A stretch of DNA of 32,000 nucleotides from Cupriavidus necator (GTDB lineage: Bacteria; Pseudomonadota; Gammaproteobacteria; Burkholderiales; Burkholderiaceae). The position numbers and the translations under genes were made by a program. Below, piece by piece: positions 1-16,807 of this stretch. Location: positions 2,670,001 through 2,702,000 of the forward strand of contig NZ_CP066018.1 of assembly GCF_016127575.1 (NCBI RefSeq), written 5' to 3'. The notes under the pieces are model-generated. The model had not been told where the DNA came from. It saw only the letters and a list, made by a program, of their open reading frames with translations, and ran no database searches. Within the stretch, counting starts at the first letter, position 1, and each line of letters begins with the position of its first letter.

Positions 1-2
1 CG

Positions 3-1271
3 GTGTCGTTCGCCGGGCTGATCGAGAAGATCGAGATCCTGCGTTCCACGCTGCGCTGGTCGTCGCGGCTTGACCGGCCGGAGATCGAGAAGCTGCTCAA
101 GCAGGTCACCACGCTGCGCGACGAGGTGATGGGGCTGTCGCACAAGGAGCGCTTCGTGCAGGCCGCGTCGGCCGAGGCGGCCCCGCCGCAGGAAGAAGTC
201 GAGCGCATGCCGCGCGCGCGCCGGCAGGCACTGGTTGAGCGCAGCTTTATTTTCGAAGGGACCTTCGGCGACAACCCCAAGTTGCTGGAGGCACTGGAGA
301 TTGCCGAGAAGGCGGCGCCGACCGACCTGCCGGTGCTGATCGATGGAGAGAGCGGCACCGGCAAGGAGCTGATGGCCAAGGTGATCCATGCCAATGGCTC
401 ACGCACCGACAAGCCGTTTATCTCGGTCAACTGCGGCGCCATCCCCGACAGCCTGCTTGAATCCGAGCTGTTCGGCCACAAGAAGGGCGCCTTCACCGGC
501 GCCAGCAATGACCGCCGCGGCAAGTTCGAGAGCGCGCATACCGGCACCATCTTCCTGGACGAGATCGGCGAGCTGCCGCTGACCGGGCAGGTCAAGCTGC
601 TGCGCGTGCTGGAGGCGCACGAGATCCAGCGCGTGGGCTCGGACGAGGCGATCTCGGTCGATACGCGCATCGTCGCGGCGACCAACAAGGACCTGCGCCG
701 CATGAGCCAGGCCGGCACCTTCCGCGAAGACCTGTTCTATCGCCTGAGCGTGATCCACGTCAGCCTGCCGTCGCTGCGCGAGCGGCGCGACGAGATCCCG
801 CTGCTGGTGTCGTACTTCAGTGACGAGGCCGCCGGCATGCTCAAGCGCCGGCCACTCAAGCTGACGCCGCGGCTGCGCGACTTCCTGCTGCACTACGACT
901 ACCCGGGCAATATCCGCGAACTGCGCAACCTGATGTACCGGCTGAGCTGCCTGGCCGGCGACACCGCCGACCTGGCCCAACTGCCGCAGGACATCCGCCC
1001 CAGGCCCGCCGCACTGGCGGTGGTGGGCAATGGCCCCGCCGCTGCCGACATTGCCATGGCGACGTCCCTCAGCGAAGCCAAGCGCGCCGCCAGCGACGAG
1101 GCCGAGCGGGCCTTCCTCGAACGGGGCTTGCAGGAGGTCGGCGGCACCGTCGCCGAACTGGCGCGGCGCTTCGACATGAACCGCTCGCACCTGCAGATGC
1201 TGCTGAAGAAGCACGGCATCCACTCGAAGGATTTCCGCGCCAACCGGCAGGCCGAAGGCGGCAAGGGGTAG
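3..1271 (+). CDS. Sigma-54-dependent transcriptional activator (bacterial enhancer-binding protein); 5' end cut by the window edge
   Basis: The ORF is open from base 3. It carries AAA+ sigma-54 interaction motifs: GESGTGKE (Walker A), ELFGHKKGAFTGA (GAFTGA loop) and IFLDEIGEL (Walker B). The C-terminus has a Fis-type HTH (VAELARRFDMNRSHLQMLLKKHGI). The N-terminal sensory domain lies outside the window. Confidence 0.9.
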   Translation: MSFAGLIEKIEILRSTLRWSSRLDRPEIEKLLKQVTTLRDEVMGLSHKERFVQAASAEAAPPQEEVERMPRARRQALVERSFIFEGTFGDNPKLLEALEIAEKAAPTDLPVLIDGESGTGKELMAKVIHANGSRTDKPFISVNCGAIPDSLLESELFGHKKGAFTGASNDRRGKFESAHTGTIFLDEIGELPLTGQVKLLRVLEAHEIQRVGSDEAISVDTRIVAATNKDLRRMSQAGTFREDLFYRLSVIHVSLPSLRERRDEIPLLVSYFSDEAAGMLKRRPLKLTPRLRDFLLHYDYPGNIRELRNLMYRLSCLAGDTADLAQLPQDIRPRPAALAVVGNGPAAADIAMATSLSEAKRAASDEAERAFLERGLQEVGGTVAELARRFDMNRSHLQMLLKKHGIHSKDFRANRQAEGGKG

Positions 1272-1299
1272 GGCGGCGAGGCCGCCGGCGGTCGTGCCT

Positions 1300-2076
1300 T
1301 CAGGCGTCCAGCTCGGGATTGACCAGGGTCTTGTCAGAGCCGTACGGGTCCGCCGCACGCAGCACCACCACCGACACGTTGTCGCGGCCGCCGGCATCGA
1401 GCGCCATCTGCACCAGCGTCGGCGCGGCCTGCGCAACGTCCTGCTGCGCCAGCACCGCCGCGATGTCGTCATCGTCGACCTCGTTGCTCAGGCCATCGCT
1501 GCACAGCAGGTACACGTCGCCATCGGCGACCTCGGTCAGCAGCTGCTCCGGCGCCAGCGTCGGGGCCGCGCCGACGGCGCGTGTGATGGTGTTCTGCGCG
1601 GGATGGTGGCGCGCTTCTTCCGGGGTGATCAGCCCGCGCGCCAGCAGGCGCTCGACCTGGTTGTGGTCGCGCGTGAGGCGCGCGAACTGGCCGCCGCGCA
1701 GCCGGTACAGGCGGCTGTCGCCGGCCCACACGCAGGCGCAACGGCGATCGCCCGCCAGCATTACCACCACCGTGCTGCCGATGCAGCGCACGCCCAGGCG
1801 CGCCGCTTCATCGACCAGCGCCAGGTTCACGCCCTGCAGCGCCGCGCGCGTGGCGTCGACCCGGTCTTCCAGCCGGGGCTGCGGCGGCAGCGTGGCCAGC
1901 GCCTGGACCACCGCCTGGCTGGCGAAGTCTCCCACGGCATGGCCGCCCATGCCGTCGGCCACTGCCCACAGGTCCTGGCTGGGCAGATCCAGGCAAGCGT
2001 CCTCGTTGCGCTCGCGCACGCGCCCGACGTCCGTGCATGCGGCCGAGGTCCACTGGAAGTGCGAGTCGAAACCCAA
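1300..2076 (-). CDS. PP2C-family Ser/Thr protein phosphatase
   Basis: PP2C motifs are present: TDVGRVRERNEDA, AVADGMGGH, LLCSDGL and GGRDNVSVVV. The start is TTG at 2076, with GGAGA 5 nt upstream. It lies 74 nt downstream of the small-protein gene on the same strand. Confidence 0.85.
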   Translation of the reverse strand: MGFDSHFQWTSAACTDVGRVRERNEDACLDLPSQDLWAVADGMGGHAVGDFASQAVVQALATLPPQPRLEDRVDATRAALQGVNLALVDEAARLGVRCIGSTVVVMLAGDRRCACVWAGDSRLYRLRGGQFARLTRDHNQVERLLARGLITPEEARHHPAQNTITRAVGAAPTLAPEQLLTEVADGDVYLLCSDGLSNEVDDDDIAAVLAQQDVAQAAPTLVQMALDAGGRDNVSVVVLRAADPYGSDKTLVNPELDA

Positions 2077-2150
2077 TCTTGTCTCCGGTCCGCGTCAAGC
2101 CCCGGACCAGCCGGGGCACTGCCACGGCGGCGCTGGCGCTCAGATCAGCA

Positions 2151-2444
2151 TCAGATCAGCCTGCCGTCGTTCCTCGCGCCCTGGTCGCCCTGGACATTGA
2201 TGTTGGCGTTTGGCGCGTTGTTGCGGATATCGATGTTCTGGAACTGGTTGTTCATCTGATCAGCATAGAAGCTGTAGTTGATCTCGTAAAAGTTGATCAC
2301 CGTCCCGAGCGGCAGCGGAGACGAGGGCACGAACGGGCGGATCCACCCGAACACCCACTGCCCGCCGGCGCCGCGCACGCGGGCCATGGCGGCGGGAGCA
2401 AGTTCGCGGCAGCTGGCGAGGTCGTTGATTGCAAGGGTGGCCAT
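2151..2444 (-). CDS. Small (97 aa) hypothetical protein with a double-glycine-type leader-like N-terminus and an Asn/Gln-rich C-terminal part
   Basis: ATG at 2444 (complement) has GGAGA 6 nt upstream. It sits about 40 nt downstream of the predicted start of a consensus sigma-54 promoter. The N-terminus reads MATLAINDLASCRELAPAAMARVRGAGG. The 248-aa ORF in the track is an in-frame upstream extension that would run through the promoter. Confidence 0.6.
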   Translation of the reverse strand: MATLAINDLASCRELAPAAMARVRGAGGQWVFGWIRPFVPSSPLPLGTVINFYEINYSFYADQMNNQFQNIDIRNNAPNANINVQGDQGARNDGRLI

Positions 2445-2495
2445 GTTCGGTCTCCGGTGGATGTGGCGTGGCGCCGGGGGCGGTACCGGTATTGA

Positions 2496-2510
2496 GCAAG
2501 GCGCGTGCCA
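2496..2510 (-). promoter_or_regulatory. Sigma-54 (-24/-12) promoter for the small-protein/PP2C operon
   Basis: The minus strand reads TGGCAC-GCGCC-TTGC(T), matching TGGCAC-N5-TTGCW with correct GG/GC spacing. It is about 50 nt upstream of the ATG at 2444. A sigma-54 activator gene is adjacent. Confidence 0.7.
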
Positions 2511-2908
2511 CAGCATGGGTGTGGCAGCAGGTCGACTGGAAACCCAAGTCCGGCGCGGGCTGCAGGGCGGGGCGGGGACAATGGGGCCCACCCCGGCAGT
2601 CCAGCCACGTTGGCCTCGACCCGACACCCGGCCAGCCAGTGTCGGGATGGACCCACCACAGCGCAAGCATCGCGCGATCCCTGCCGCCAGCCCGCCCAGG
2701 CCGCGCGGCGCGGGGCGAATGGTGGCTGCCAGCCAACAGAGTTGCCGCCACGCGGTTGGTTGCCATCCGACACTCGATCCCATCCAAAACCCCCGGATTT
2801 CCGCCAAACCGTTGTCGGGCCGTGCCTCCCTGGTATTGGCATGGTTGATGCGGTTGGTCTGGCACGAAGCAGCAATGCTTGCAGCAACCAGACACACCGA
2901 GGCCAGCC

Positions 2909-3394
2909 ATGAACATCCAGGAACAACAAGAACGCGCTACCGGCAGCGACGATCGTTTCGCGGACCCGCTGCCGCTCGGCGCCCACCTGGTCACCGAACG
3001 CCACGGCTACGCCCATCATGGGATCTACGCCGGCGCCGGCCGCGTCATCCACTACGCCGGTTTCGCGCGCTCCCTGCAGGCCGCGCCGGTTGAAGAAACT
3101 ACCCTCGAAGCCTTCGCCGCCGGATTCGGCATCGCCGTCAGGCCGGAGCCCTGCGCCCGCTTCGCCGGCCGCCAGGCCGTCGAACGCGCCCGTTCCCGCG
3201 TGGGCGAAAACGCCTACCACTTGCTGACCAACAACTGTGAGCATTTCTGCTCCTGGTGCCTGTCCGGCGAAAGCCGCAGCGAGCAGGTGGAAACATGCAT
3301 GCGCCGCCCGCGCGCCGCGCTGCACATCGGCTGGCTGCTGCTGGGCGCGCTGCTGCAAGCCCAACTGGGCGGCCTGAACCTGGACCTCGCCTGA
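2909..3394 (+). CDS. LRAT / NlpC-P60 superfamily (H-box plus NCEHF motif) protein with a hydrophobic C-terminal segment
   Basis: The catalytic-type motifs HHGIYAG and LLTNNCEHFCSWC are typical of lecithin-retinol acyltransferase-like papain-fold proteins. ATG at 2909 has GAGG 6 nt upstream. The C-terminal stretch ALHIGWLLLGALLQAQLGGL looks membrane-associated. Confidence 0.7.
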   Translation: MNIQEQQERATGSDDRFADPLPLGAHLVTERHGYAHHGIYAGAGRVIHYAGFARSLQAAPVEETTLEAFAAGFGIAVRPEPCARFAGRQAVERARSRVGENAYHLLTNNCEHFCSWCLSGESRSEQVETCMRRPRAALHIGWLLLGALLQAQLGGLNLDLA

Positions 3395-3428
3395 ACCGCG
3401 CGGCCATCACCGAATCAAGGAGCCTGCC

Positions 3429-3659
3429 ATGTCCGGACTGATCGACTGGGAATTGCGCTGCAACCTGCGCGGACAAGCCTGCCACCGCAGCTGCGCCACT
3501 GCCGCCGCCAACTGCGCCCGCGGCCACCACCGGCCGGGGCGCCGCGCCCTGCGCCATGCCGGCCGGCCGACGCGCCTGCCATCGTCCGGCCGCCTTGCCG
3601 GGCGAGGCCGCCGGGACGGGTCCGCCACTGCCGGCGAGCCGGGCCGGTGCGGATTTTGA
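3429..3659 (+). CDS. Possible small basic Cys-containing protein (76 aa); doubtful
   Basis: A strong SD (AAGGAG) lies 6 nt before the ATG, 34 nt after the LRAT-like stop. By eye this frame has the highest third-position G/C of the frames compared. The Arg/Gly/Pro/Ala-rich composition also fits an out-of-frame artefact of GC-rich DNA. Confidence 0.25.
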   Translation: MSGLIDWELRCNLRGQACHRSCATAAANCARGHHRPGRRALRHAGRPTRLPSSGRLAGRGRRDGSATAGEPGRCGF

Positions 3660-3665
3660 TATACT
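3657..3665 (+). promoter_or_regulatory. Possible extended -10 promoter (TGaTATACT) for the tRNA gene
   Basis: TG-n-TATACT lies about 55 nt upstream of the tRNA 5' end. No convincing -35 element was seen. Confidence 0.3.
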
Positions 3666-3721
3666 CCGGGCCGTCTCCAGGATCACCGCGCCCGCGGTTC
3701 CCGATCCTGACAGTCCTGTCC

Positions 3722-3796
3722 CTCGCCGTAGTTCAATGGATAGAACGAGCGCCTCCTAAGCGCTAGATACAGGTTCGATTCCTGTCGGCGGGACCA
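3722..3796 (+). tRNA. tRNA-Arg (anticodon CCT)
   Basis: The cloverleaf was folded by hand. Acceptor CTCGCCG/CGGCGGG; D arm GTTC-AATGGATA-GAAC; anticodon arm AGCGC-CTCCTAA-GCGCT; T arm ACAGG-TTCGATT-CCTGT; discriminator A with an encoded CCA. The D, anticodon and T arms resemble E. coli argW as I recall it. Confidence 0.88.
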
Positions 3797-3960
3797 GTCC
3801 ACAGTCCGTACCCTGTGGTTCCCAGCTGTGCCCTCTCCCCAACTCAATCTAGGTATTCCCCCGGAATTTCAGCCCAAGAAGATGGCGCCAGCCTCGCCGT
3901 CGAGGGCCTGGATTGACAGGTGCTTCATGCTACGATCCTCCAAACTCCGGAGCGCTCGCC

Positions 3961-4170
3961 ATGGAACTGAAATACAAAGGCCGAGAGATCTCAATCCAGG
4001 CCAAAAAGGACTCGGGCGGCCAGTGGGACTGGTCATATGGCATCCGCGGTCACGGACACCGGCACAACACCGGGGCGCTTGCTCCCACGGAATCGGTCGC
4101 GATCGATAACGCCTATGCGTGCGCGAAACGGGAGATTGACCAAGCCACTTCAGGCGACGCCAACGACTGA
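3961..4170 (+). CDS. Hypothetical small protein (69 aa)
   Basis: ATG at 3961 has GGAG 8 nt upstream. It lies in the AT-richer stretch just 3' of the tRNA. No recognisable motif was found. Confidence 0.45.
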   Translation: MELKYKGREISIQAKKDSGGQWDWSYGIRGHGHRHNTGALAPTESVAIDNAYACAKREIDQATSGDAND

Positions 4171-4201
4171 CACTTCCTGAATGCCACTAGTGGAGAAAGA
4201 C

Positions 4202-4438
4202 ATGGATCTCCAAGGGTTCACGTATTACCGCGACCACTGGTATGAAGCATCGGCAACGTCCCTTGGCGTTGGCGGCCCCTGGCAAGGTGAGGTGACCATC
4301 TGCGCGAAAGCGGCGGATGGCGCGCCACTCAAGGTCTTCGATCACCATCTTGTTCCGGGCCAGTTCTTCAGCGAAGGCGAGGCATGGCAGCATGCCTCGG
4401 ACTGGGCCAGGAAGCAGATCGATGCGCGCTTTGGCTAG
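4202..4438 (+). CDS. Hypothetical small protein (78 aa)
   Basis: ATG at 4202 has GGAG 6 nt upstream and is 31 nt after the previous stop. The C-terminal pattern (EGEAWQHASDWARKQID) parallels that of the upstream ORF (ESVAIDNAYACAKREID). Confidence 0.45.
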   Translation: MDLQGFTYYRDHWYEASATSLGVGGPWQGEVTICAKAADGAPLKVFDHHLVPGQFFSEGEAWQHASDWARKQIDARFG

Positions 4439-4465
4439 CACGCGCGCCAGTCGCTGCGCAAGTGC

Positions 4466-4837
4466 TCATGCCGCACTGCGTTCGGCGATCAGCACGTTCG
4501 CGGGAATCTTCAGGTCACGGTGCAGCCGCCGGATCATGGCCAGACTCAGCGCGCGCTTGCCATTGAGCACTTCATATACGCGGTTGAGGTTACCCAGGTA
4601 CGGTTGCATGTCGCGTGGCGTGAGGCCAGCTTGTTCCATGCGAAAGCGGATCGCGGCGATCGGATCCGGCAGATCCATCGGAAAGTGCCCGGCTTCATAC
4701 CGTTCCACCAGCATGGAGAGGATTTCCAGCTTGTCGCCCTCAGGCGTGTCGGGCACAGGGTCTGCGTCGACCAGGGCGGAGACCGCGGCCAGCGCTTCCT
4801 GGTAGTCGGCTTCAGTGTGCAGGGGGCGGATATCCAT
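4466..4837 (-). CDS. higA: HigA-family antitoxin (XRE-type HTH)
   Basis: The N-terminus MDIRPLHTEADYQEALAAVSALVD and the HTH region LNGKRALSLAMIRRLHRDLKIPANVLI resemble the E. coli-type HigA architecture. It starts 5 nt after the higB stop (a GTG at 4846 would overlap it). GGAG lies 8 nt upstream of the ATG at 4837. Confidence 0.8.
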   Translation of the reverse strand: MDIRPLHTEADYQEALAAVSALVDADPVPDTPEGDKLEILSMLVERYEAGHFPMDLPDPIAAIRFRMEQAGLTPRDMQPYLGNLNRVYEVLNGKRALSLAMIRRLHRDLKIPANVLIAERSAA

Positions 4838-4842
4838 GGTGA

Positions 4843-5145
4843 TCACTCCATTTCCGCGGTGGCGGCGTCTATGCGGTCATAGTCGAGATGGGTGCCGATG
4901 AACTTCACGCAGACGACCCCCAACCGGTATGCGACAGCGACGATAAGCCGGTACTTGTTCCCGCCGAGATTGAAGACCACGCGGTTGCTGCCGACGAAGC
5001 TGGCACTGGCGTAGCGTGCCTTGATGTCCCTGGGCGCGGTCCAGGCCGCGCAGCGGGCTTCTTCATGCCAGGCAAGCAGCGGTTGCCTGGCTTCGGGGTG
5101 GAACTTGCTGAATTGCAGCAAAGACCTCTTCGCTATGATTCGCAT
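4843..5145 (-). CDS. higB: HigB-family (RelE/ParE superfamily) toxin, mRNA interferase
   Basis: The 100-aa protein MRIIAKRSL...VVFNLGGNKYRLIVAVAY...KFIGTHLDYD aligns by eye along its length with E. coli K-12 HigB (VFNVGGNELRVVAMVFF...THKEYD). The toxin-first gene order is typical of higBA. Confidence 0.8.
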   Translation of the reverse strand: MRIIAKRSLLQFSKFHPEARQPLLAWHEEARCAAWTAPRDIKARYASASFVGSNRVVFNLGGNKYRLIVAVAYRLGVVCVKFIGTHLDYDRIDAATAEME

Positions 5146-5158
5146 GTGGGCAATGCCA

Positions 5159-5204
5159 GTCCCAAAATGGGACTGCGGCAAGAGTGGATGAGGGGTCATC
5201 CACT
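5159..5204. promoter_or_regulatory. Two perfect palindromes upstream of higB (candidate HigA operators, or a terminator of the SMR gene)
   Basis: GTCCCA-AAA-TGGGAC lies at 5159-5173. AGTGGATGA-GGGG-TCATCCACT lies at 5183-5204. Both are in the 76-bp gap between the SMR stop and the higB start. Confidence 0.35.
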
Positions 5205-5221
5205 GCCGAGCATACCTACGA

Positions 5222-5554
5222 TCAATGCGCGCTAGTCTTCGAAAACAGCTGAATGACGGCGACGCCGGCAATAATCAGACCAATCCCAGCGCAAGCCGCC
5301 AGGTCCGGCACCTGCCGGTACAGCACCACCGCGATCAGCGATACCAGTACGATCCCGGCCCCGCTCCAGATCGCATAGGCAATTCCCACCGGCACTGTCC
5401 GCATCACCAGCATCAGCAAATAGAACGCCGCCACATAGCCGGTCACGACCAGCACGCTGGGGACCAGCCGCGTAAAGCCCTGCGACGCCTTCAGGCTGCT
5501 GGTGGCGATGACTTCGGCGACGATGGCGAGGGCGAGGAGCAGGTATCCGTTCAT
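5222..5554 (-). CDS. emrE: SMR-family multidrug efflux protein (EmrE/Qac type)
   Basis: The 110-aa protein has four TM segments, the conserved membrane Glu in AIVAEVIATS, and GFTRLVPS and PVGIAYAIWSGAGIVLVSL matching E. coli EmrE. The ATG at 5554 is preferred over the TTG at 5566. Confidence 0.85.
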   Translation of the reverse strand: MNGYLLLALAIVAEVIATSSLKASQGFTRLVPSVLVVTGYVAAFYLLMLVMRTVPVGIAYAIWSGAGIVLVSLIAVVLYRQVPDLAACAGIGLIIAGVAVIQLFSKTSAH

Positions 5555-5814
5555 GGGAGCGTACAAGTGGGTGGGCCGAAACGGGCCGAAGCCGGCATCT
5601 TAGCGCTCCCGCATGTTGCGCCAAAGCCGCGTCCCTCCGTTGCGGTGGTTGTGCAAAGCGGTGATGGAGGATTGAATGTGGCTATAACGAAGAGAACAAG
5701 CGGGCGCATGGCCGGCCCGCGGCACAAGTCCTACAGGGCAGTCGCGGTAGTTGGCCCGACCAAGCCGGCACGAACCCCACGATGCCGGCGGCGGGCATGG
5801 GTAAGGGGAGCGGT

Positions 5815-6324
5815 ATGCATCACAATGGCATCGACGGCACGTCCGCCGGGACGTCTTCGCAGCCGGGGGACGGGGGGCCCGCGCCGGACGCGAATCCGTG
5901 GCAGGACACCATCGCCGCGGCGGACCAAGCACTGGAAGAGGCTTCGCGCATCCAACGCGGCGTGCAGCACAACCTGAAGCTGTTGCAGGAGGTGCGGTCG
6001 CTGCGCGAAGAGTTGCGCAAGGCCCATGCGGAGGTCGATCGCTACCGGGGCATGCATGCCCGGGTGGTGGTCAGCATGCGTCAGCTGGACGAAGACCATG
6101 TGGGGGAAATGAGCCGGCTCCAGGCGGCGAACGAGATGCTGCAGGTGCGTCATCGCGTCTACAAGCTGATGGCCGAGCACTACGCGCGCGCGGCGTTGAA
6201 CCTGGATCCGGAAACCTTCGCGGCCCATCGCGACCGCGTGCTGCAGCATGTCTTGTTCCAGCGCCGCAGGGGCGTGTCGTCCGACGATATCGGCTACGCG
6301 GACGTGGCTTTCCTGATGCTCTAG
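5815..6324 (+). CDS. Hypothetical protein with a predicted coiled-coil central region
   Basis: ATG at 5815 is preceded by AAGGGGAG. The N-terminus is low-complexity Gly/Pro-rich, followed by heptad-like charged helices (LKLLQEVRSLREELRKAHAEVDRY). No family was recognised. Confidence 0.5.
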   Translation: MHHNGIDGTSAGTSSQPGDGGPAPDANPWQDTIAAADQALEEASRIQRGVQHNLKLLQEVRSLREELRKAHAEVDRYRGMHARVVVSMRQLDEDHVGEMSRLQAANEMLQVRHRVYKLMAEHYARAALNLDPETFAAHRDRVLQHVLFQRRRGVSSDDIGYADVAFLML

Positions 6325-9799: not shown

Positions 9800-9941
9800 A
9801 CCCGCACCAGGCCAACACCATGTTGGTCAGGTCGACCATGAACCCCGGCCGCAGGTAACCCACGAACCCAAGCGCCAGCACCCCGGCCAGCACCGCCAGC
9901 CCGGCTGCCTTCATCACGCGCGCCTGGGTCGTGCTCATCAT
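9798..9941 (-). CDS. Small single-TM membrane protein (47 aa), translationally coupled to the MFS gene
   Basis: Its ATG overlaps the MFS TGA stop (ATGATGA). There is one hydrophobic helix (AAGLAVLAGVLALGFVGYL). It occupies the C-terminal tail of an otherwise spurious 1274-aa antisense ORF in the track. Confidence 0.5.
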   Translation of the reverse strand: MMSTTQARVMKAAGLAVLAGVLALGFVGYLRPGFMVDLTNMVLAWCG

Positions 9942-11149
9942 GCCGCCGCCGGCTGCGCGCGCACCAGCGCCTGCTCGCGGATCGGCAGGTTCACCAGCGC
10001 GGCCACCACGCCCAGCGCGATCGCGATCAGCCACACGGTGTTGTAGCCGCCGGTGCGGTCGTAGAGGAAGCCGCCCAGCCAGGCACCCAGGAAACTGCCG
10101 ATCTGGTGCGAGAAGAACACCACGCCCGATAGCATCGACAGGTATTTCACGCCGAACACCTGGGCGATGATGCCGTTGGTCAGCGGCACCGTGGACAGCC
10201 ACAGGAAGCCCATGACCGCCGCGAACACCCAGGTGCTGGCCACCGTCAGCGGCAGCAGCAGGTAGCTGGCGATCACCACCGAGCGCGTCACGTAGATGGC
10301 GGACAGCAGGTAGCGCTTGGGCAGGCGCTGCCCCAGCGCACCCGCGGTATAGGTGCCGAATACATTGAACAGCCCGATCAGCGCCAGCGCCACGACGGCG
10401 ACTTTTGGGTCGGTCAGGCCCTGGTCCTTCAGGTAGGGCGCCAGGTGCACGCCGATAAACACCACCTGGAAGCCGCACACGAAGTAGCCCAGCGTCAGCA
10501 GCTGGAAGTTGCGGTTGCCGAAGGCTTCGTGCACGGCCTGGCCGATGGTCTGGTGGTGGCCGCCGGTGTGGGCCGCTTCGCGCGGCTCGCGCAGCGTCAG
10601 CGCCAGCGGCAGCATCACGCAGGCCATCAACGCCATTACATAGAGGGCGTTCTGCCAGCCCAGCCCGGAGATCAGGCCCTGTTCCACCGGGATCATCAGG
10701 AACTGGCCGAAGGAGCCGGCCGCGGCGGCGATGCCCATGGCCCAGACCCGCTTCTCGGGGCTGGCCACACGGCCGATCACGCCGTAGACGATGCTGTAGG
10801 TGGTGCCGGACTGGGCGATGCCGATCATCACGCCGGCACCAGTGGCAAAGGCGGTGCCGCTGGTGGCCAGCGCCATCACCACCAGCCCGGCCACATACAG
10901 CGCCACGCCGACCAGCATGATGCGCAGCGCGCCGAACTTGTCGGCGAGCGCCCCGGCAAAGGGCTGGCTGGCGCCCCACATCAGGTTCTGCAGCGCCAGC
11001 GCGAAGGCGAAGGTCTCTCGGTTCCAGCCATGGGCCTGGGTGATCGGCAGGTTGAACAGGCCGAAGCCGTGCCGGATGCCCATTGAAAGGGTCACGAGCA
11101 GCCCACCGCACACAAGTACGGTGGTCAGGGAGAGTTGTCGGTTCTGCAT
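9938..11149 (-). CDS. MFS transporter (oxalate/formate-antiporter-like or YhjX-like subfamily)
   Basis: The 403-aa protein has a 12-TM-type profile and an MFS signature region, PFAGALADKFGALRIMLVG. The start at MQNRQ (11149) was chosen; the upstream in-frame extension is Pro/Ala/Gly-rich. Confidence 0.85.
   Translation of the reverse strand: MQNRQLSLTTVLVCGGLLVTLSMGIRHGFGLFNLPITQAHGWNRETFAFALALQNLMWGASQPFAGALADKFGALRIMLVGVALYVAGLVVMALATSGTAFATGAGVMIGIAQSGTTYSIVYGVIGRVASPEKRVWAMGIAAAAGSFGQFLMIPVEQGLISGLGWQNALYVMALMACVMLPLALTLREPREAAHTGGHHQTIGQAVHEAFGNRNFQLLTLGYFVCGFQVVFIGVHLAPYLKDQGLTDPKVAVVALALIGLFNVFGTYTAGALGQRLPKRYLLSAIYVTRSVVIASYLLLPLTVASTWVFAAVMGFLWLSTVPLTNGIIAQVFGVKYLSMLSGVVFFSHQIGSFLGAWLGGFLYDRTGGYNTVWLIAIALGVVAALVNLPIREQALVRAQPAAA

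Positions 11150-14464: not shown

Positions 14465-16807
<2,343 letters not shown>

Follow-up and report, generated by a model that had tools for sequence, protein, structure and literature searches.

Does a short stretch of Cupriavidus necator DNA that pairs a sigma-54 activator with a small protein and a Ser/Thr phosphatase form a self-contained regulatory module, or is it a fragment of something larger? The window analyzed here is a 32,000-nucleotide stretch of chromosome 1 of C. necator H16 (GCF_016127575.1, NZ_CP066018.1, positions 2,670,001 to 2,702,000, forward strand), and the genes in question occupy its positions 3-3394. The initial annotation described an enhancer-binding protein (EBP) converging on a two-gene operon that encodes a 97-aa protein with a secreted-looking leader and a PP2C phosphatase, a consensus -24/-12 promoter, and a divergent LRAT-like gene. 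It proposed that the phosphatase could feed back on a phospho-dependent input, such as an FHA-type N-terminal domain of the EBP lying outside the window. Our analysis confirmed that what had been observed in the sequence is real, whereas the interpretation placed on it was only partly supported.

The genes and regulatory sites in the window

All four genes were recovered (Table 1). Profile searches assigned the EBP to Pfam Sigma54_activat (E 1.7e-70), together with AAA_lid_14, and the phosphatase to Pfam PP2C and PP2C_2 (E 2.6e-13 for PP2C_2) and to NCBIfam Stp1/IreP (204.9 bits), while the divergent gene matched Pfam LRAT (E 1.9e-22). The 97-aa reading frame matched no Pfam or NCBIfam model, but the presence of 47 homologues and a median dN/dS of 0.26 over 105 pairs showed that it is a real gene. 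The sigma-54 promoter reads TGGCACGCGCCTTGCT on the minus strand and is one base wider than the 2496-2510 initially annotated. It ends 51 nt upstream of the ATG at 2444 and is the only exact match in the 32 kb on either strand, compared with 0.05 expected from shuffled sequences. Conservation provided stronger evidence that this match is not due to chance, because a GGCA[CT]-N5-TTGC[ATG] element lies 55-92 nt upstream of the orthologous ATG in almost all related loci and is the only stringent match in 23-kb loci. With a relaxed -12, a -24/-12 element preceded 50 of 50 type-A (the family of the 97-aa protein) and 61 of 63 type-B first-in-array peptide genes, but none of the 29 inner type-B genes and 1 of 5 inner type-A genes. 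No sigma-70-like promoter was found in window positions 1-3900.

Table 1. Features of the window, with positions counted from its first nucleotide.
Position	Strand	Feature	Details
3-1271	+	Sigma-54 EBP	Residues 17-438 of 438; conserved ~55-aa helical N-terminal segment with no known domain, AAA+ domain with a GAFTGA loop, C-terminal HTH
1300-2076	-	PP2C (PPM) Ser/Thr phosphatase, PppA-like	258 aa; second and last gene of the sigma-54 operon; TTG start preceded by GGAGA
2151-2444	-	Type-A double-glycine-leader peptide precursor	97 aa; leader, residues 1-26 (nt 2367-2444, MATLAINDLASCRELAPAAMARVRGA); predicted mature 71-aa peptide starts at GGQWVFGWIRPF (nt 2154-2366)
2495-2510	-	Sigma-54 -24/-12 promoter (P_A)	TGGCAC-GCGCC-TTGCT; predicted transcription start near 2484
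2609-2646		Candidate EBP binding site (UAS)	Dyad GTTGG-N7-CCGAC (2609-2625) with an overlapping perfect inverted repeat CCCGACAC-N11-GTGTCGGG (2620-2646); 115 bp upstream of the -24 element
2755-2771		Second copy of the dyad	GTTGGTTGCCATCCGAC; 245 bp upstream of -24 and 138 bp upstream of the LRAT start
2909-3394	+	LRAT/NlpC-P60-like protein	161 aa; His and NCEHF Cys motifs; moderately hydrophobic C-terminal segment; divergent from the peptide operon; last conserved gene of the cluster

The candidate EBP site was also conserved. A GTYGG-N7-CCRAC dyad lies 79-146 bp upstream of -24 (mode 114-116) in 64 of 67 loci, and its spacer varies freely. The window holds three matches to this dyad against 0.17 expected, two of which fall in the peptide-LRAT intergenic region, and a distal dyad at 216-263 bp was also seen in other Cupriavidus loci. 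A related CCRAC-N14-16-GTYGG form lies upstream of the type-B promoters and of the promoter of a third peptide array, which has the same promoter and upstream site in H16 and Paraburkholderia.

The wider locus and its conservation

Inspection of the sequence upstream of the window, a check that the initial annotation had itself suggested, revealed that only 16 residues of the EBP lie outside it and that the full protein carries no FHA, GAF, PAS, or receiver domain. Its first ~100 residues match no known domain, and its N-terminus has no PDB relative. The EBP stays below every NCBIfam equivalog cutoff, with NorR being the best (329 bits against a cutoff of 476) and PspF reaching 257 against 443 bits. 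Its start overlaps by 4 nt the stop of a gene encoding an ABC exporter with two cNMP-like domains and a C39 peptidase (a PCAT). The module is not self-contained, as the initial annotation had claimed, but forms one end of a cluster of about 25 kb built around this exporter. In H16 and its relatives, read in the orientation of the window, the locus comprises an array of four double-glycine (GG) leader peptide genes, a receptor-type Hanks Ser/Thr kinase, a periplasmic FGE-sulfatase protein that carries an added caspase domain in some genera, two secreted DUF4399 proteins, one to three type-B GG peptide genes, a NodT outer-membrane factor, a bitopic membrane protein of ~860 aa with two FHA domains, a HlyD adaptor, a parvulin, the PCAT, and the EBP, followed convergently by the type-A GG peptide and PP2C genes and, divergently from those, by the LRAT-like gene. 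In the full cluster, six further peptides related to the 97-aa protein are encoded.

The functional link proposed between the EBP, the small protein, and the PP2C was supported by synteny. Among 80 species-level genomes of Cupriavidus, Paraburkholderia, Caballeronia, Noviherbaspirillum, Aromatoleum, and others, the order FHA-HlyD-PpiC-PCAT-EBP was found in 70 loci and the PP2C plus type-A peptide genes in 72, and in 61 loci the PP2C gene is convergent and ends within 400 bp of the EBP stop. Pandoraea has the same arrangement. However, five loci with enough flanking sequence keep the exporter but lack the peptide-PP2C pair, which is thus dispensable for the exporter. The LRAT-like gene is present in 56 of the 72 loci that have the peptide and PP2C, travels with them even in two loci in which the block is inverted (designated L050 and L066), and nothing beyond it is conserved. 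In Paraburkholderia the PP2C gene starts 11 nt after the stop of the peptide gene.

Proposed peptide export and phospho-signaling components

The leader of the 97-aa protein is not a Sec signal, its maximum 19-residue hydropathy being 0.83, but shows the double-glycine pattern, in which invariant L15 and M20, together with V/I23, fall at -12, -7, and -4 from the G25-A/G26 site. This suggests that the likely route is cleavage and export by the neighboring C39 transporter, a type of exporter that cleaves double-glycine leaders. The PCAT retains EEMDCGAACL and HWEGYHYVVV, the catalytic Cys and His motifs, and the outer-membrane factor passes the NodT cutoff (310.8 against 210 bits). By eye, however, the cNMP-like domains lack the phosphate-binding arginine, and AlphaFold gave no confident fold for the peptide (mean pLDDT 46). 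The type-A peptide is homologous to the other leader peptides of the cluster, type B included (hhalign probability 99%, E 4.5e-18), and a type-B profile found 1773 protein clusters, none of which carries a functional name, being 'hypothetical' apart from a few misnamed ones. No paper or family model describes the system.

A Ser/Thr kinase and FHA domains do exist in the locus, as the initial annotation had guessed, although the FHA domains sit on a protein separate from the EBP. A Pkinase gene lies in the cluster in Cupriavidus, Paraburkholderia, and Noviherbaspirillum, with a kinase domain spanning residues 123-375 and a membrane segment near 408-428. The kinase lies about 12 kb from the PCAT and was seen in only these three genera because the 80 loci stop short of it; a kinase-motif scan of those loci found none. 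The FHA protein has one membrane segment, and its second FHA domain, read by eye, has SK where the canonical GR lies. The best solved relative of the PP2C is 6JKV 'PppA' (E 9.6e-61 over residues 9-241, against 1.4e-39 for the next hit).

Proposed mechanism, related systems, and possible roles of the peptides

We consider it likely that positions 3-3394 are the regulatory and cargo end of a conserved locus for secreted peptides. Gene content, synteny, the leader pattern, and the conservation of the promoter and dyad were established by the sequence analysis, whereas RpoN dependence, EBP binding, cleavage, and export are all inferences. From conserved DNA, we infer that the EBP binds the dyad about 115 bp upstream and activates P_A, thereby driving the peptide-PP2C operon, and that the same activator probably drives the similar promoters in front of the other two peptide arrays. 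From the leader features, the intact C39 catalytic site, and adjacency, we infer that the precursor is cleaved after Gly25-Ala26 by the PCAT and leaves the cell through the PCAT-HlyD-NodT channel. The least certain step, inferred by analogy, is that the kinase, the FHA protein, and the PppA-like PP2C form a threonine-phosphorylation switch resembling PpkA/Fha1/PppA of type VI secretion, which would gate export or EBP activity.

Comparison with individual systems helps to place the locus. As in class II microcin and double-glycine bacteriocin type I secretion systems, such as MccV with CvaA, CvaB, and TolC, ribosomal peptides with an N-terminal double-glycine leader occur with an ABC exporter bearing a catalytically intact C39 domain, a HlyD-family adaptor, and an outer-membrane channel. 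In contrast to those systems, the leader here is 26 residues rather than about 15, the PCAT carries two N-terminal cNMP-like domains, the locus encodes its own NodT channel, a parvulin, and a two-FHA membrane protein, transcription is inferred to run from sigma-54 promoters with a dedicated EBP, a kinase and a PP2C are present, and no immunity gene was recognized. The PpkA, Fha1, and PppA pathway of type VI secretion likewise places a receptor-type Hanks kinase, an FHA protein, and a PP2C inside a secretion-system locus, and sigma-54 activators are found in some T6SS clusters; here, however, the machine is a type I, PCAT-based exporter with no T6SS gene present, the FHA protein is bitopic with two FHA domains, and the phosphatase would be co-transcribed with a cargo peptide from the EBP-dependent promoter. 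HetC of Nostoc PCC 7120 shares the order cNMP-like domain, C39 peptidase, and ABC exporter, and its extra domain is required for function and binds ppGpp in vitro (PMC10986499), but the PCAT here has two such domains and has its candidate substrates, adaptor, and outer-membrane factor encoded next to it, whereas HetC has no known substrate or adjacent adaptor. In peptide-pheromone-regulated bacteriocin loci of Gram-positive bacteria, such as pln, blp, and com, several double-glycine peptides are exported by one PCAT, as is inferred here, one conserved peptide likewise stands apart from diversified ones, and one regulator serves several peptide operons, as it appears to do here; in the present locus, a sigma-54 EBP with a Hanks kinase, an FHA protein, and a PP2C takes the place of a histidine kinase and response regulator, and any sensing of a peptide would be hypothetical. 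Finally, sensor-less EBPs controlled in trans, such as PspF and HrpS, similarly consist of an AAA+ domain plus an HTH with no recognized N-terminal sensory domain, but they differ from the present EBP, which carries a conserved N-terminal helical segment of its own.

The model of a self-contained three-gene circuit, in which the small protein would be Sec-secreted or otherwise unrelated to neighboring genes, is very unlikely. Although it accommodates the synteny, the conserved promoter, and the existence of a kinase and FHA domains, it is contradicted by the domain architecture of the EBP, the overlap with the PCAT gene, the type of leader, and the similar promoters that serve two peptide arrays outside the trio. 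It is also unlikely that the peptides are precursors of modified peptides (RiPPs) tailored by the parvulin-like, LRAT-like, and FGE-sulfatase proteins. All three are syntenic, LRAT-family enzymes transfer acyl groups, and the parvulin matches TIGR04500, 'putative peptide maturation system protein', but at 84.5 bits, far below the cutoff of 180. Moreover, the FGE-sulfatase and DUF4399 proteins have signal peptides and would be periplasmic, whereas type I export would bypass the periplasm; no radical SAM, YcaO, lanthionine, or similar enzyme is present in the cluster; and LRAT is missing from 16 of the 72 loci that have type A.

With respect to the role of the peptides, both antagonism and signaling remain tentative, with the former being somewhat the more plausible. 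The peptides may be class II microcin-like bacteriocins, with the elaborate regulation timing toxin release and the LRAT-like membrane protein or the PP2C serving as self-protection, as suggested by the microcin set of export machinery, the tandem, diversified arrays of up to eight copies, the repeated loss of the type-A gene in close relatives, and a leader start, M-x-T-L-T-I-x-D-L, that resembles the MccV leader. However, no small membrane immunity gene sits next to any peptide gene, which weakens a bacteriocin reading; the type-A core (W-V-F-G-W-I and FYADQMNNQFQNID) is strongly conserved across genera, which is unlike arms-race cargo; and the published microcin surveys that we searched do not mention these genera. 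Alternatively, and more doubtfully, the type-A peptide could be an exported autoinducer sensed by the periplasmic domain of the kinase or of the FHA protein, with the signal reaching the EBP, which would then induce all peptide arrays plus the PP2C as a reset, a Gram-negative counterpart of the peptide-pheromone, kinase, and regulator circuits of Gram-positive bacteriocin loci. Type A is the most conserved peptide, is usually single-copy, and is the only one tied to the phosphatase, while the kinase and the FHA protein both have large extracytoplasmic domains, one activator appears to serve three peptide promoters, and HetC, a PCAT with a cNMP-like domain, is linked to developmental signaling (PMC10986499). 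Against this, a 71-aa peptide would have to re-cross the outer membrane to reach a periplasmic sensor, no evidence of sensing was obtained, and five genomes keep the exporter without type A or the PP2C.

Because the EBP has no sensor domain, its conserved N-terminal helix is the likely point of control in trans, and because the phosphatase is inferred to be transcribed from the EBP-dependent promoter, it would, within the switch proposed by analogy, give negative feedback. In this view, the four genes are the visible end of a gene cluster, conserved across Burkholderiales, that makes small peptides and probably exports them through its own transporter, with a dedicated sigma-54 activator and a kinase/FHA/phosphatase set apparently controlling it.

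Gene content and conservation of the peptide locus

The four genes listed in the initial annotation are real, and its observation of a sigma-54 activator facing a small-protein and phosphatase operon was confirmed. The window corresponds to about 2.88-2.90 Mb (reverse strand) of C. necator H16 chromosome 1 (AM260479.1), where an identical copy of the 97-aa protein is encoded. The enhancer-binding protein (EBP) carried a sigma-54 interaction AAA+ domain (Pfam Sigma54_activat, E 1.7e-70) with an AAA lid, and the GAFTGA loop was visible in its translation as HKKGAFTGAS. The NorR and NtrC models aligned to their last residues, although no separate HTH hit was reported in Pfam. The protein fell below every NCBIfam equivalog cutoff for named groups (NorR, NifA, NtrC, PspF and others), with NorR being the best at 329 bits against a cutoff of 476. 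The phosphatase passed the Pfam cutoffs for PP2C_2 and PP2C but missed the Stp1/IreP equivalog (204.9 against 230 bits). In H16 the EBP has the accession CAJ93762 and the phosphatase CAJ93761. The divergent gene displayed an LRAT domain (80.2 bits against a cutoff of 24.3; E 1.9e-22), with HHGIY and NNCEHF, bearing the conserved His and Cys, visible in the translation. The 97-aa protein matched no Pfam or NCBIfam model, but its gene was under purifying selection, with a median dN/dS of 0.26 over 105 pairs (0.22 for the core and 0.47 for the leader).

Coordinates of the features (handles beginning with L denote individual loci among those compared; L088 belongs to H16, L091 to Paraburkholderia and L092 to Noviherbaspirillum autotrophicum)
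Feature	Sequence	Position	Strand
Sigma-54 EBP gene, incomplete at its 5' end	window	3-1271	+
PP2C phosphatase gene	window	1300-2076	-
Gap between the peptide and PP2C genes (74 nt)	window	2077-2150	
Predicted fold (-35 kcal/mol) containing the GC-rich hairpin	window	2071-2156	
Type-A peptide gene (97 aa)	window	2151-2444	-
-24/-12 promoter element, TGGCACGCGCCTTGCT	window	2495-2510	-
Dyad GTYGG-N7-CCRAC, 115 bp from -24	window	2609-2625	
Perfect inverted repeat CCCGACAC-N11-GTGTCGGG	window	2620-2646	
Second dyad	window	2755-2771	
LRAT-like gene	window	2909-3394	+
tRNA-Arg (anticodon CCT)	window	3722-3796	
HigB-toxin-like gene and its partner	window	about 4466-5271	
PCAT (cNMP-like domains at residues ~60-290)	L003	12487-15597	
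Disrupted type-A gene (deletion in the core)	L006	~15288-15623	
Disrupted type-A gene (7-nt deletion in the leader)	L008	~15318-15664	
Disrupted type-A gene (54-nt deletion removing the ribosome-binding site and start codon)	L009	~15292-15597	
Dyad inside the outer-membrane-factor gene	L088	2612-2628	
Dyad inside the outer-membrane-factor gene	L006-L038 and L041	~4760-5050 (mostly ~4830-4930)	
FGE-sulfatase protein gene (405 aa)	L088	6278-7495	
FGE-sulfatase protein gene with Peptidase_C14 (654 aa)	L091	5394-7358	
5' untranslated hairpin	L088	9925-9960	
5' untranslated hairpin	L077	~2945-2975	
5' untranslated hairpin	L091	~9925-9960	
Misnamed peptide gene	L088	10001-10270	
FHA-GAF-HD protein gene	L092	2658-4613	

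The interpretation of the initial annotation, a self-contained module in which the EBP might carry a phospho-dependent N-terminal domain, was only partly supported. The H16 DNA upstream of window base 1 revealed that the EBP is only 438 aa long, so that merely 16 residues lie outside the window, and no FHA, GAF, PAS, V4R or receiver domain was found. Instead, the first ~100 residues, which had no Pfam hit, hold a highly conserved ~55-aa helical segment, SYAGLIEKIEILRSTLRWSSRLER-EIEKLLRQA--LRDEVMQLSHKERFVQAA, followed by a variable linker, and this segment had no relative in the PDB. The EBP start codon overlaps by 4 nt the stop of a 1036-aa ABC transporter with two cNMP-binding-like domains, a Peptidase_C39 domain (E 1.5e-39), ABC_membrane and ABC_tran. 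Its C39 domain retains the catalytic motifs EEMDCGAACL and HWEGYHYVVV, and it is therefore a true peptidase-containing ABC transporter (PCAT) rather than a carrier of a degenerate C39-like domain. By eye, both cNMP-binding-like domains lack the arginine of the phosphate-binding cassette (FADIALLRDYRHESSVRA and FGERACVMRQEQLASAIA), which suggests that they may bind something other than cAMP or cGMP. Upstream of the PCAT lie a parvulin-type prolyl isomerase with a weak match to TIGR04500 (84.5 bits against a cutoff of 180), a HlyD-family adaptor, and a protein of about 860 aa with two FHA domains and one membrane segment near residue 364. The locus is thus larger, and more coherent, than could be seen from the window alone.

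The 97-aa protein (type A) has the features of a double-glycine-leader peptide. An alignment of 25-30 homologues from Cupriavidus, Pandoraea, Variovorax and metagenomes gave the consensus leader MATLTIxDLxxxRELDxRAMSxVRGG, in which L15, M20, R24 and G25 were invariant in 30 sequences. Counting back from the G25-(G/A)26 site, V/I23 falls at -4, M20 at -7 and L15 at -12, the positions that define double-glycine leaders recognized by C39 domains. In H16 the site reads RGA|GGQW, and the predicted mature peptide is 71 aa, starting at Gly27. The core motifs are nearly invariant, with WVFGWI-P right after the site and NFYEIN-SFYADQMNNQFQNID further on. A profile search of 1.84 billion representatives returned 131 relatives at E ≤ 0.001 and 67 at E ≤ 1e-10. 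Long proteins matching this profile (P0234, which was inspected, and P0247 and P0255, which show the same multi-stretch pattern) look like repeat proteins giving spurious hits. AlphaFold2 with a 30-sequence alignment yielded no usable fold for the type-A peptide (mean pLDDT 46, pTM 0.15). Public annotations of the peptides are misleading, since in some NCBI records the type-A peptide is named "Porin" and the related type-B peptides "STAS domain-containing protein".

A scan of one genome per GTDB species with the PCAT gave 525 confirmed relatives, of which the best 80 loci, at least 78% identical over the full length, were searched by tblastn with the H16 proteins. The FHA, HlyD, parvulin, PCAT and EBP genes were all present in 70 of 80 loci, and PP2C and the type-A peptide, whose gene lies one gene away from the PCAT in H16, were both present in 72 of 80, three of the eight exceptions being truncated contigs. 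In 61 loci the PP2C gene was convergent and ended within 400 bp of the EBP stop, and 56 loci also kept the LRAT-like gene. In two loci (L050 and L066) the peptide-PP2C pair was inverted, and the LRAT gene was inverted with it. Loss of synteny in related genomes, set beforehand as a refuting condition for the proposed linkage, was therefore not observed. In Paraburkholderia the PP2C start codon lies 11 nt after the peptide stop codon. The wider gap in H16 contains a GC-rich hairpin, CCCCGG-N5-CCGGGG, which may tune the ratio of peptide to phosphatase, and other Cupriavidus and Caballeronia loci have unrelated hairpins at this position. The type-A gene was disrupted independently in three close relatives of H16 (L006, L008 and L009), with the promoter intact in all three. 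Nothing beyond LRAT was conserved. In H16 the tRNA-Arg, the only hit of an Rfam search of window 1-6000, marks the end of the conserved cluster, and the genes beyond it, including the HigB-toxin-like gene with its partner and an SMR pump, are not conserved in other genera, hinting at a potential island inserted at the tRNA.

Candidate control DNA and the additional peptide arrays

The promoter element upstream of the type-A gene, with its GG and GC dinucleotides spaced 10 nt apart, was the only exact match to TGGCAC-N5-TTGCW in 32 kb, against 0.05 expected. It was present at -55 to -92 from the ATG in nearly all loci, and a stringent -24/-12 pattern occurred about once per 23-kb locus, nearly always in front of the type-A gene. 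No sigma-70-like promoter was detected in window 1-3900, where sigma-70 promoters and intrinsic terminators were at or below the number expected by chance. A dyad, GTYGG-N7-CCRAC, lies 79-146 bp upstream of the -24 element in 64 of 67 loci, with a mode of 114-116 bp and a 7-nt spacer that varies freely, which is the pattern expected of a protein-binding site. In the window the proximal dyad overlaps a perfect inverted repeat, and three dyad matches compare with 0.17 expected, two of them falling in this 460-bp intergenic region. The same dyad, mostly as GTTGGTGGACCGCCAAC with a variable spacer, lies inside the 3' end of the outer-membrane-factor gene in nearly all Cupriavidus loci, about 300 bp upstream of the FHA gene, and could be a further EBP site for autoregulation or simply coding-sequence conservation.

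Upstream of the FHA gene the loci carry a NodT-family outer-membrane factor (310.8 bits against a cutoff of 210), one to three further double-glycine peptide genes (type B), two secreted DUF4399 proteins, and a divergently transcribed Peptidase_C14/FGE-sulfatase protein, although the periplasmic FGE-sulfatase protein of H16 lacks the Peptidase_C14 (caspase) domain of its Paraburkholderia counterpart. Type-B peptides share the leader MxTLxIKDLxxxxxLDxKAMxAVRGG and a core with NGNNxAF...NNI, and they are homologous to type A over 80 columns (hhalign probability 99%, E 4.5e-18). The type-B profile found 1773 protein clusters, nearly all annotated as hypothetical and a few misnamed. The N/Q-rich NGNNxAF motif raised the possibility of a curli-like amyloid, but a BLASTP comparison with an approximate CsgA sequence gave nothing (E 0.44). 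Anchoring on H16's copy (P0306) revealed, beyond the FGE-sulfatase gene, a 683-aa Hanks-type Ser/Thr kinase with a kinase domain at residues 123-375, a membrane segment near 408-428 and a DUF4384-like C-terminal region, followed by a third array of four peptide genes. A kinase-motif scan of all loci within ±10 kb of the anchor genes had found none, because the kinase lies just outside those flanks. The same layout occurs in Paraburkholderia, whereas in Noviherbaspirillum autotrophicum the cluster is rearranged and carries an extra protein with FHA, GAF and HD domains between the DUF4399 genes and the outer-membrane factor, hinting at a nucleotide-signalling input. H16 thus encodes seven leader peptides, three membrane-spanning secretion components, a kinase, an FHA protein and a phosphatase in one locus. 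The candidate locus tag H16_A2627 proved to be gltA, and no H16 expression data could be tied to these genes.

The first gene of each type-B array and of the third array is preceded by TGGCAC-N5-(C/A/G)TGC, and a composite site, CCRAC-N14-16-GTYGG, lies further upstream, continuing with N7-CCRxC in the examples read. With the -12 relaxed to NTGC, a -24/-12 element was found 40-140 nt upstream of 50 of 50 type-A and 61 of 63 type-B first-in-array genes, but upstream of none of the 29 inner type-B genes and 1 of 5 inner type-A genes, and this near-absence before inner genes is a useful negative control. Among the 61 type-B promoters, 38 had the composite site 127-150 bp upstream. A conserved hairpin, CGAGC(A/G)...GCTCG, sits in the 5' untranslated region between the sigma-54 promoter and the ribosome-binding site of the type-B and third-array operons in both Cupriavidus and Paraburkholderia, and is absent from the type-A leader in the window. 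In P. xenovorans LB400, a near-consensus sigma-70 promoter (11 of 12 positions) precedes the FHA gene, from which we infer that the exporter operon, with the EBP as its last gene, has its own promoter. The EBP would then switch on the cargo operons.

The phosphatase and comparison with known systems

Against all PDB sequences, the PP2C matched 6JKV, deposited as PppA, at E 9.6e-61 over residues 9-241, aligning end to end with DGMGGH, SDGL and DN conserved, and the next hits, mycobacterial PstP and relatives, were at about 1e-39. PppA is the PP2C of the Pseudomonas aeruginosa H1 type VI secretion threonine-phosphorylation pathway, where it opposes the receptor kinase PpkA, which acts on the FHA protein Fha1. 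A Hanks kinase, an FHA protein and a PP2C were likewise encoded in one cluster in Cupriavidus, Paraburkholderia and Noviherbaspirillum. However, the kinase and the FHA protein matched only generic relatives, and no type VI component was seen among the called genes and Pfam families of the loci. The resemblance is therefore one of logic, plus relatedness of the phosphatase, and although the system may work like this pathway, it is not a member of it.

The other closest known systems are class II microcin and double-glycine bacteriocin exporters, Gram-positive pheromone-controlled bacteriocin loci, and HetC, a PCAT with a cNMP domain that binds ppGpp in vitro (PMC10986499). A dedicated immunity gene, as in class II microcin systems, was not found next to the peptide genes, whose neighbours are the PP2C, LRAT, the outer-membrane factor, the kinase and DUF4399, with no small membrane protein gene seen among them. 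A defence-system reading was not supported, as PADLOC gave only generic domain hits. Full-text literature searches found no description of this combination, a large microcin survey does not mention these genera, and a paper on an insect-symbiosis island that mentions a sigma-54 regulator concerns an unrelated region. PCAT-based export of double-glycine peptides is already known. What has not been described, as far as these searches and our knowledge extend, is such a system with a sigma-54 and phosphothreonine regulatory layer.

Proposed mechanism and its meaning

Sequence and comparison establish the gene content and order, the leader features, an intact C39 site, a conserved -24/-12 element and dyad at three operons, the tight coupling of peptide and PP2C, and the presence of the kinase, FHA and PP2C set. 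Everything functional is inference, including RpoN-dependent transcription, DNA binding, cleavage, export and any antibacterial activity. We consider it likely that the EBP binds the dyads and activates sigma-54 transcription of all peptide operons, and that the precursors are cleaved after the GG or GA site and exported through PCAT-HlyD-NodT. It is more tentative, and in its details rather less likely than not, that the kinase, FHA protein and PP2C form a phosphothreonine switch acting on export or on the EBP, whose only candidate control surface is its N-terminal helix. In this view, PP2C expression from the EBP-dependent promoter would close a negative feedback loop.

With respect to the role of the peptides, diversified tandem arrays and the repeated loss of type A in close relatives fit antagonism, whereas the strong conservation of type A and its unique link to the phosphatase fit signalling. 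A bolder possibility, which we regard as unlikely although the evidence does not rule it out, is a previously unrecognized peptide-based communication system in Burkholderiales. The conserved 71-aa type-A peptide would be an exported autoinducer sensed by the extracytoplasmic domain of the Hanks kinase or of the two-FHA membrane protein, and the signal would pass through phosphothreonine-FHA interactions to the sensor-less sigma-54 activator, which would switch on all three peptide arrays while the co-induced PppA-like phosphatase would reset the circuit. In effect, a type VI-style phosphorylation checkpoint would be rewired onto a type I peptide exporter to build a Gram-negative analogue of Gram-positive pheromone-controlled bacteriocin production.

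Double-glycine peptide export is well studied in Gram-positive bacteria and in enterobacterial microcins, whereas its regulation in other Gram-negative bacteria has remained largely unknown. The locus is conserved in at least 80 species-level genomes, including the model strains C. necator H16 and P. xenovorans LB400, and encodes a peptide superfamily of about 1800 sequence clusters that no Pfam or NCBIfam model recognizes. It joins a dedicated sigma-54 activator, with a conserved putative binding-site architecture at three promoters, to a Hanks kinase, FHA protein and PppA-like phosphatase set and to a tripartite PCAT exporter. If the model holds, the locus provides a tractable system for asking how phosphothreonine signalling gates a type I secretion machine and a tractable case of a sensor-less EBP controlled in trans, and it also opens a large pool of unexplored secreted peptides from soil and plant-associated bacteria.
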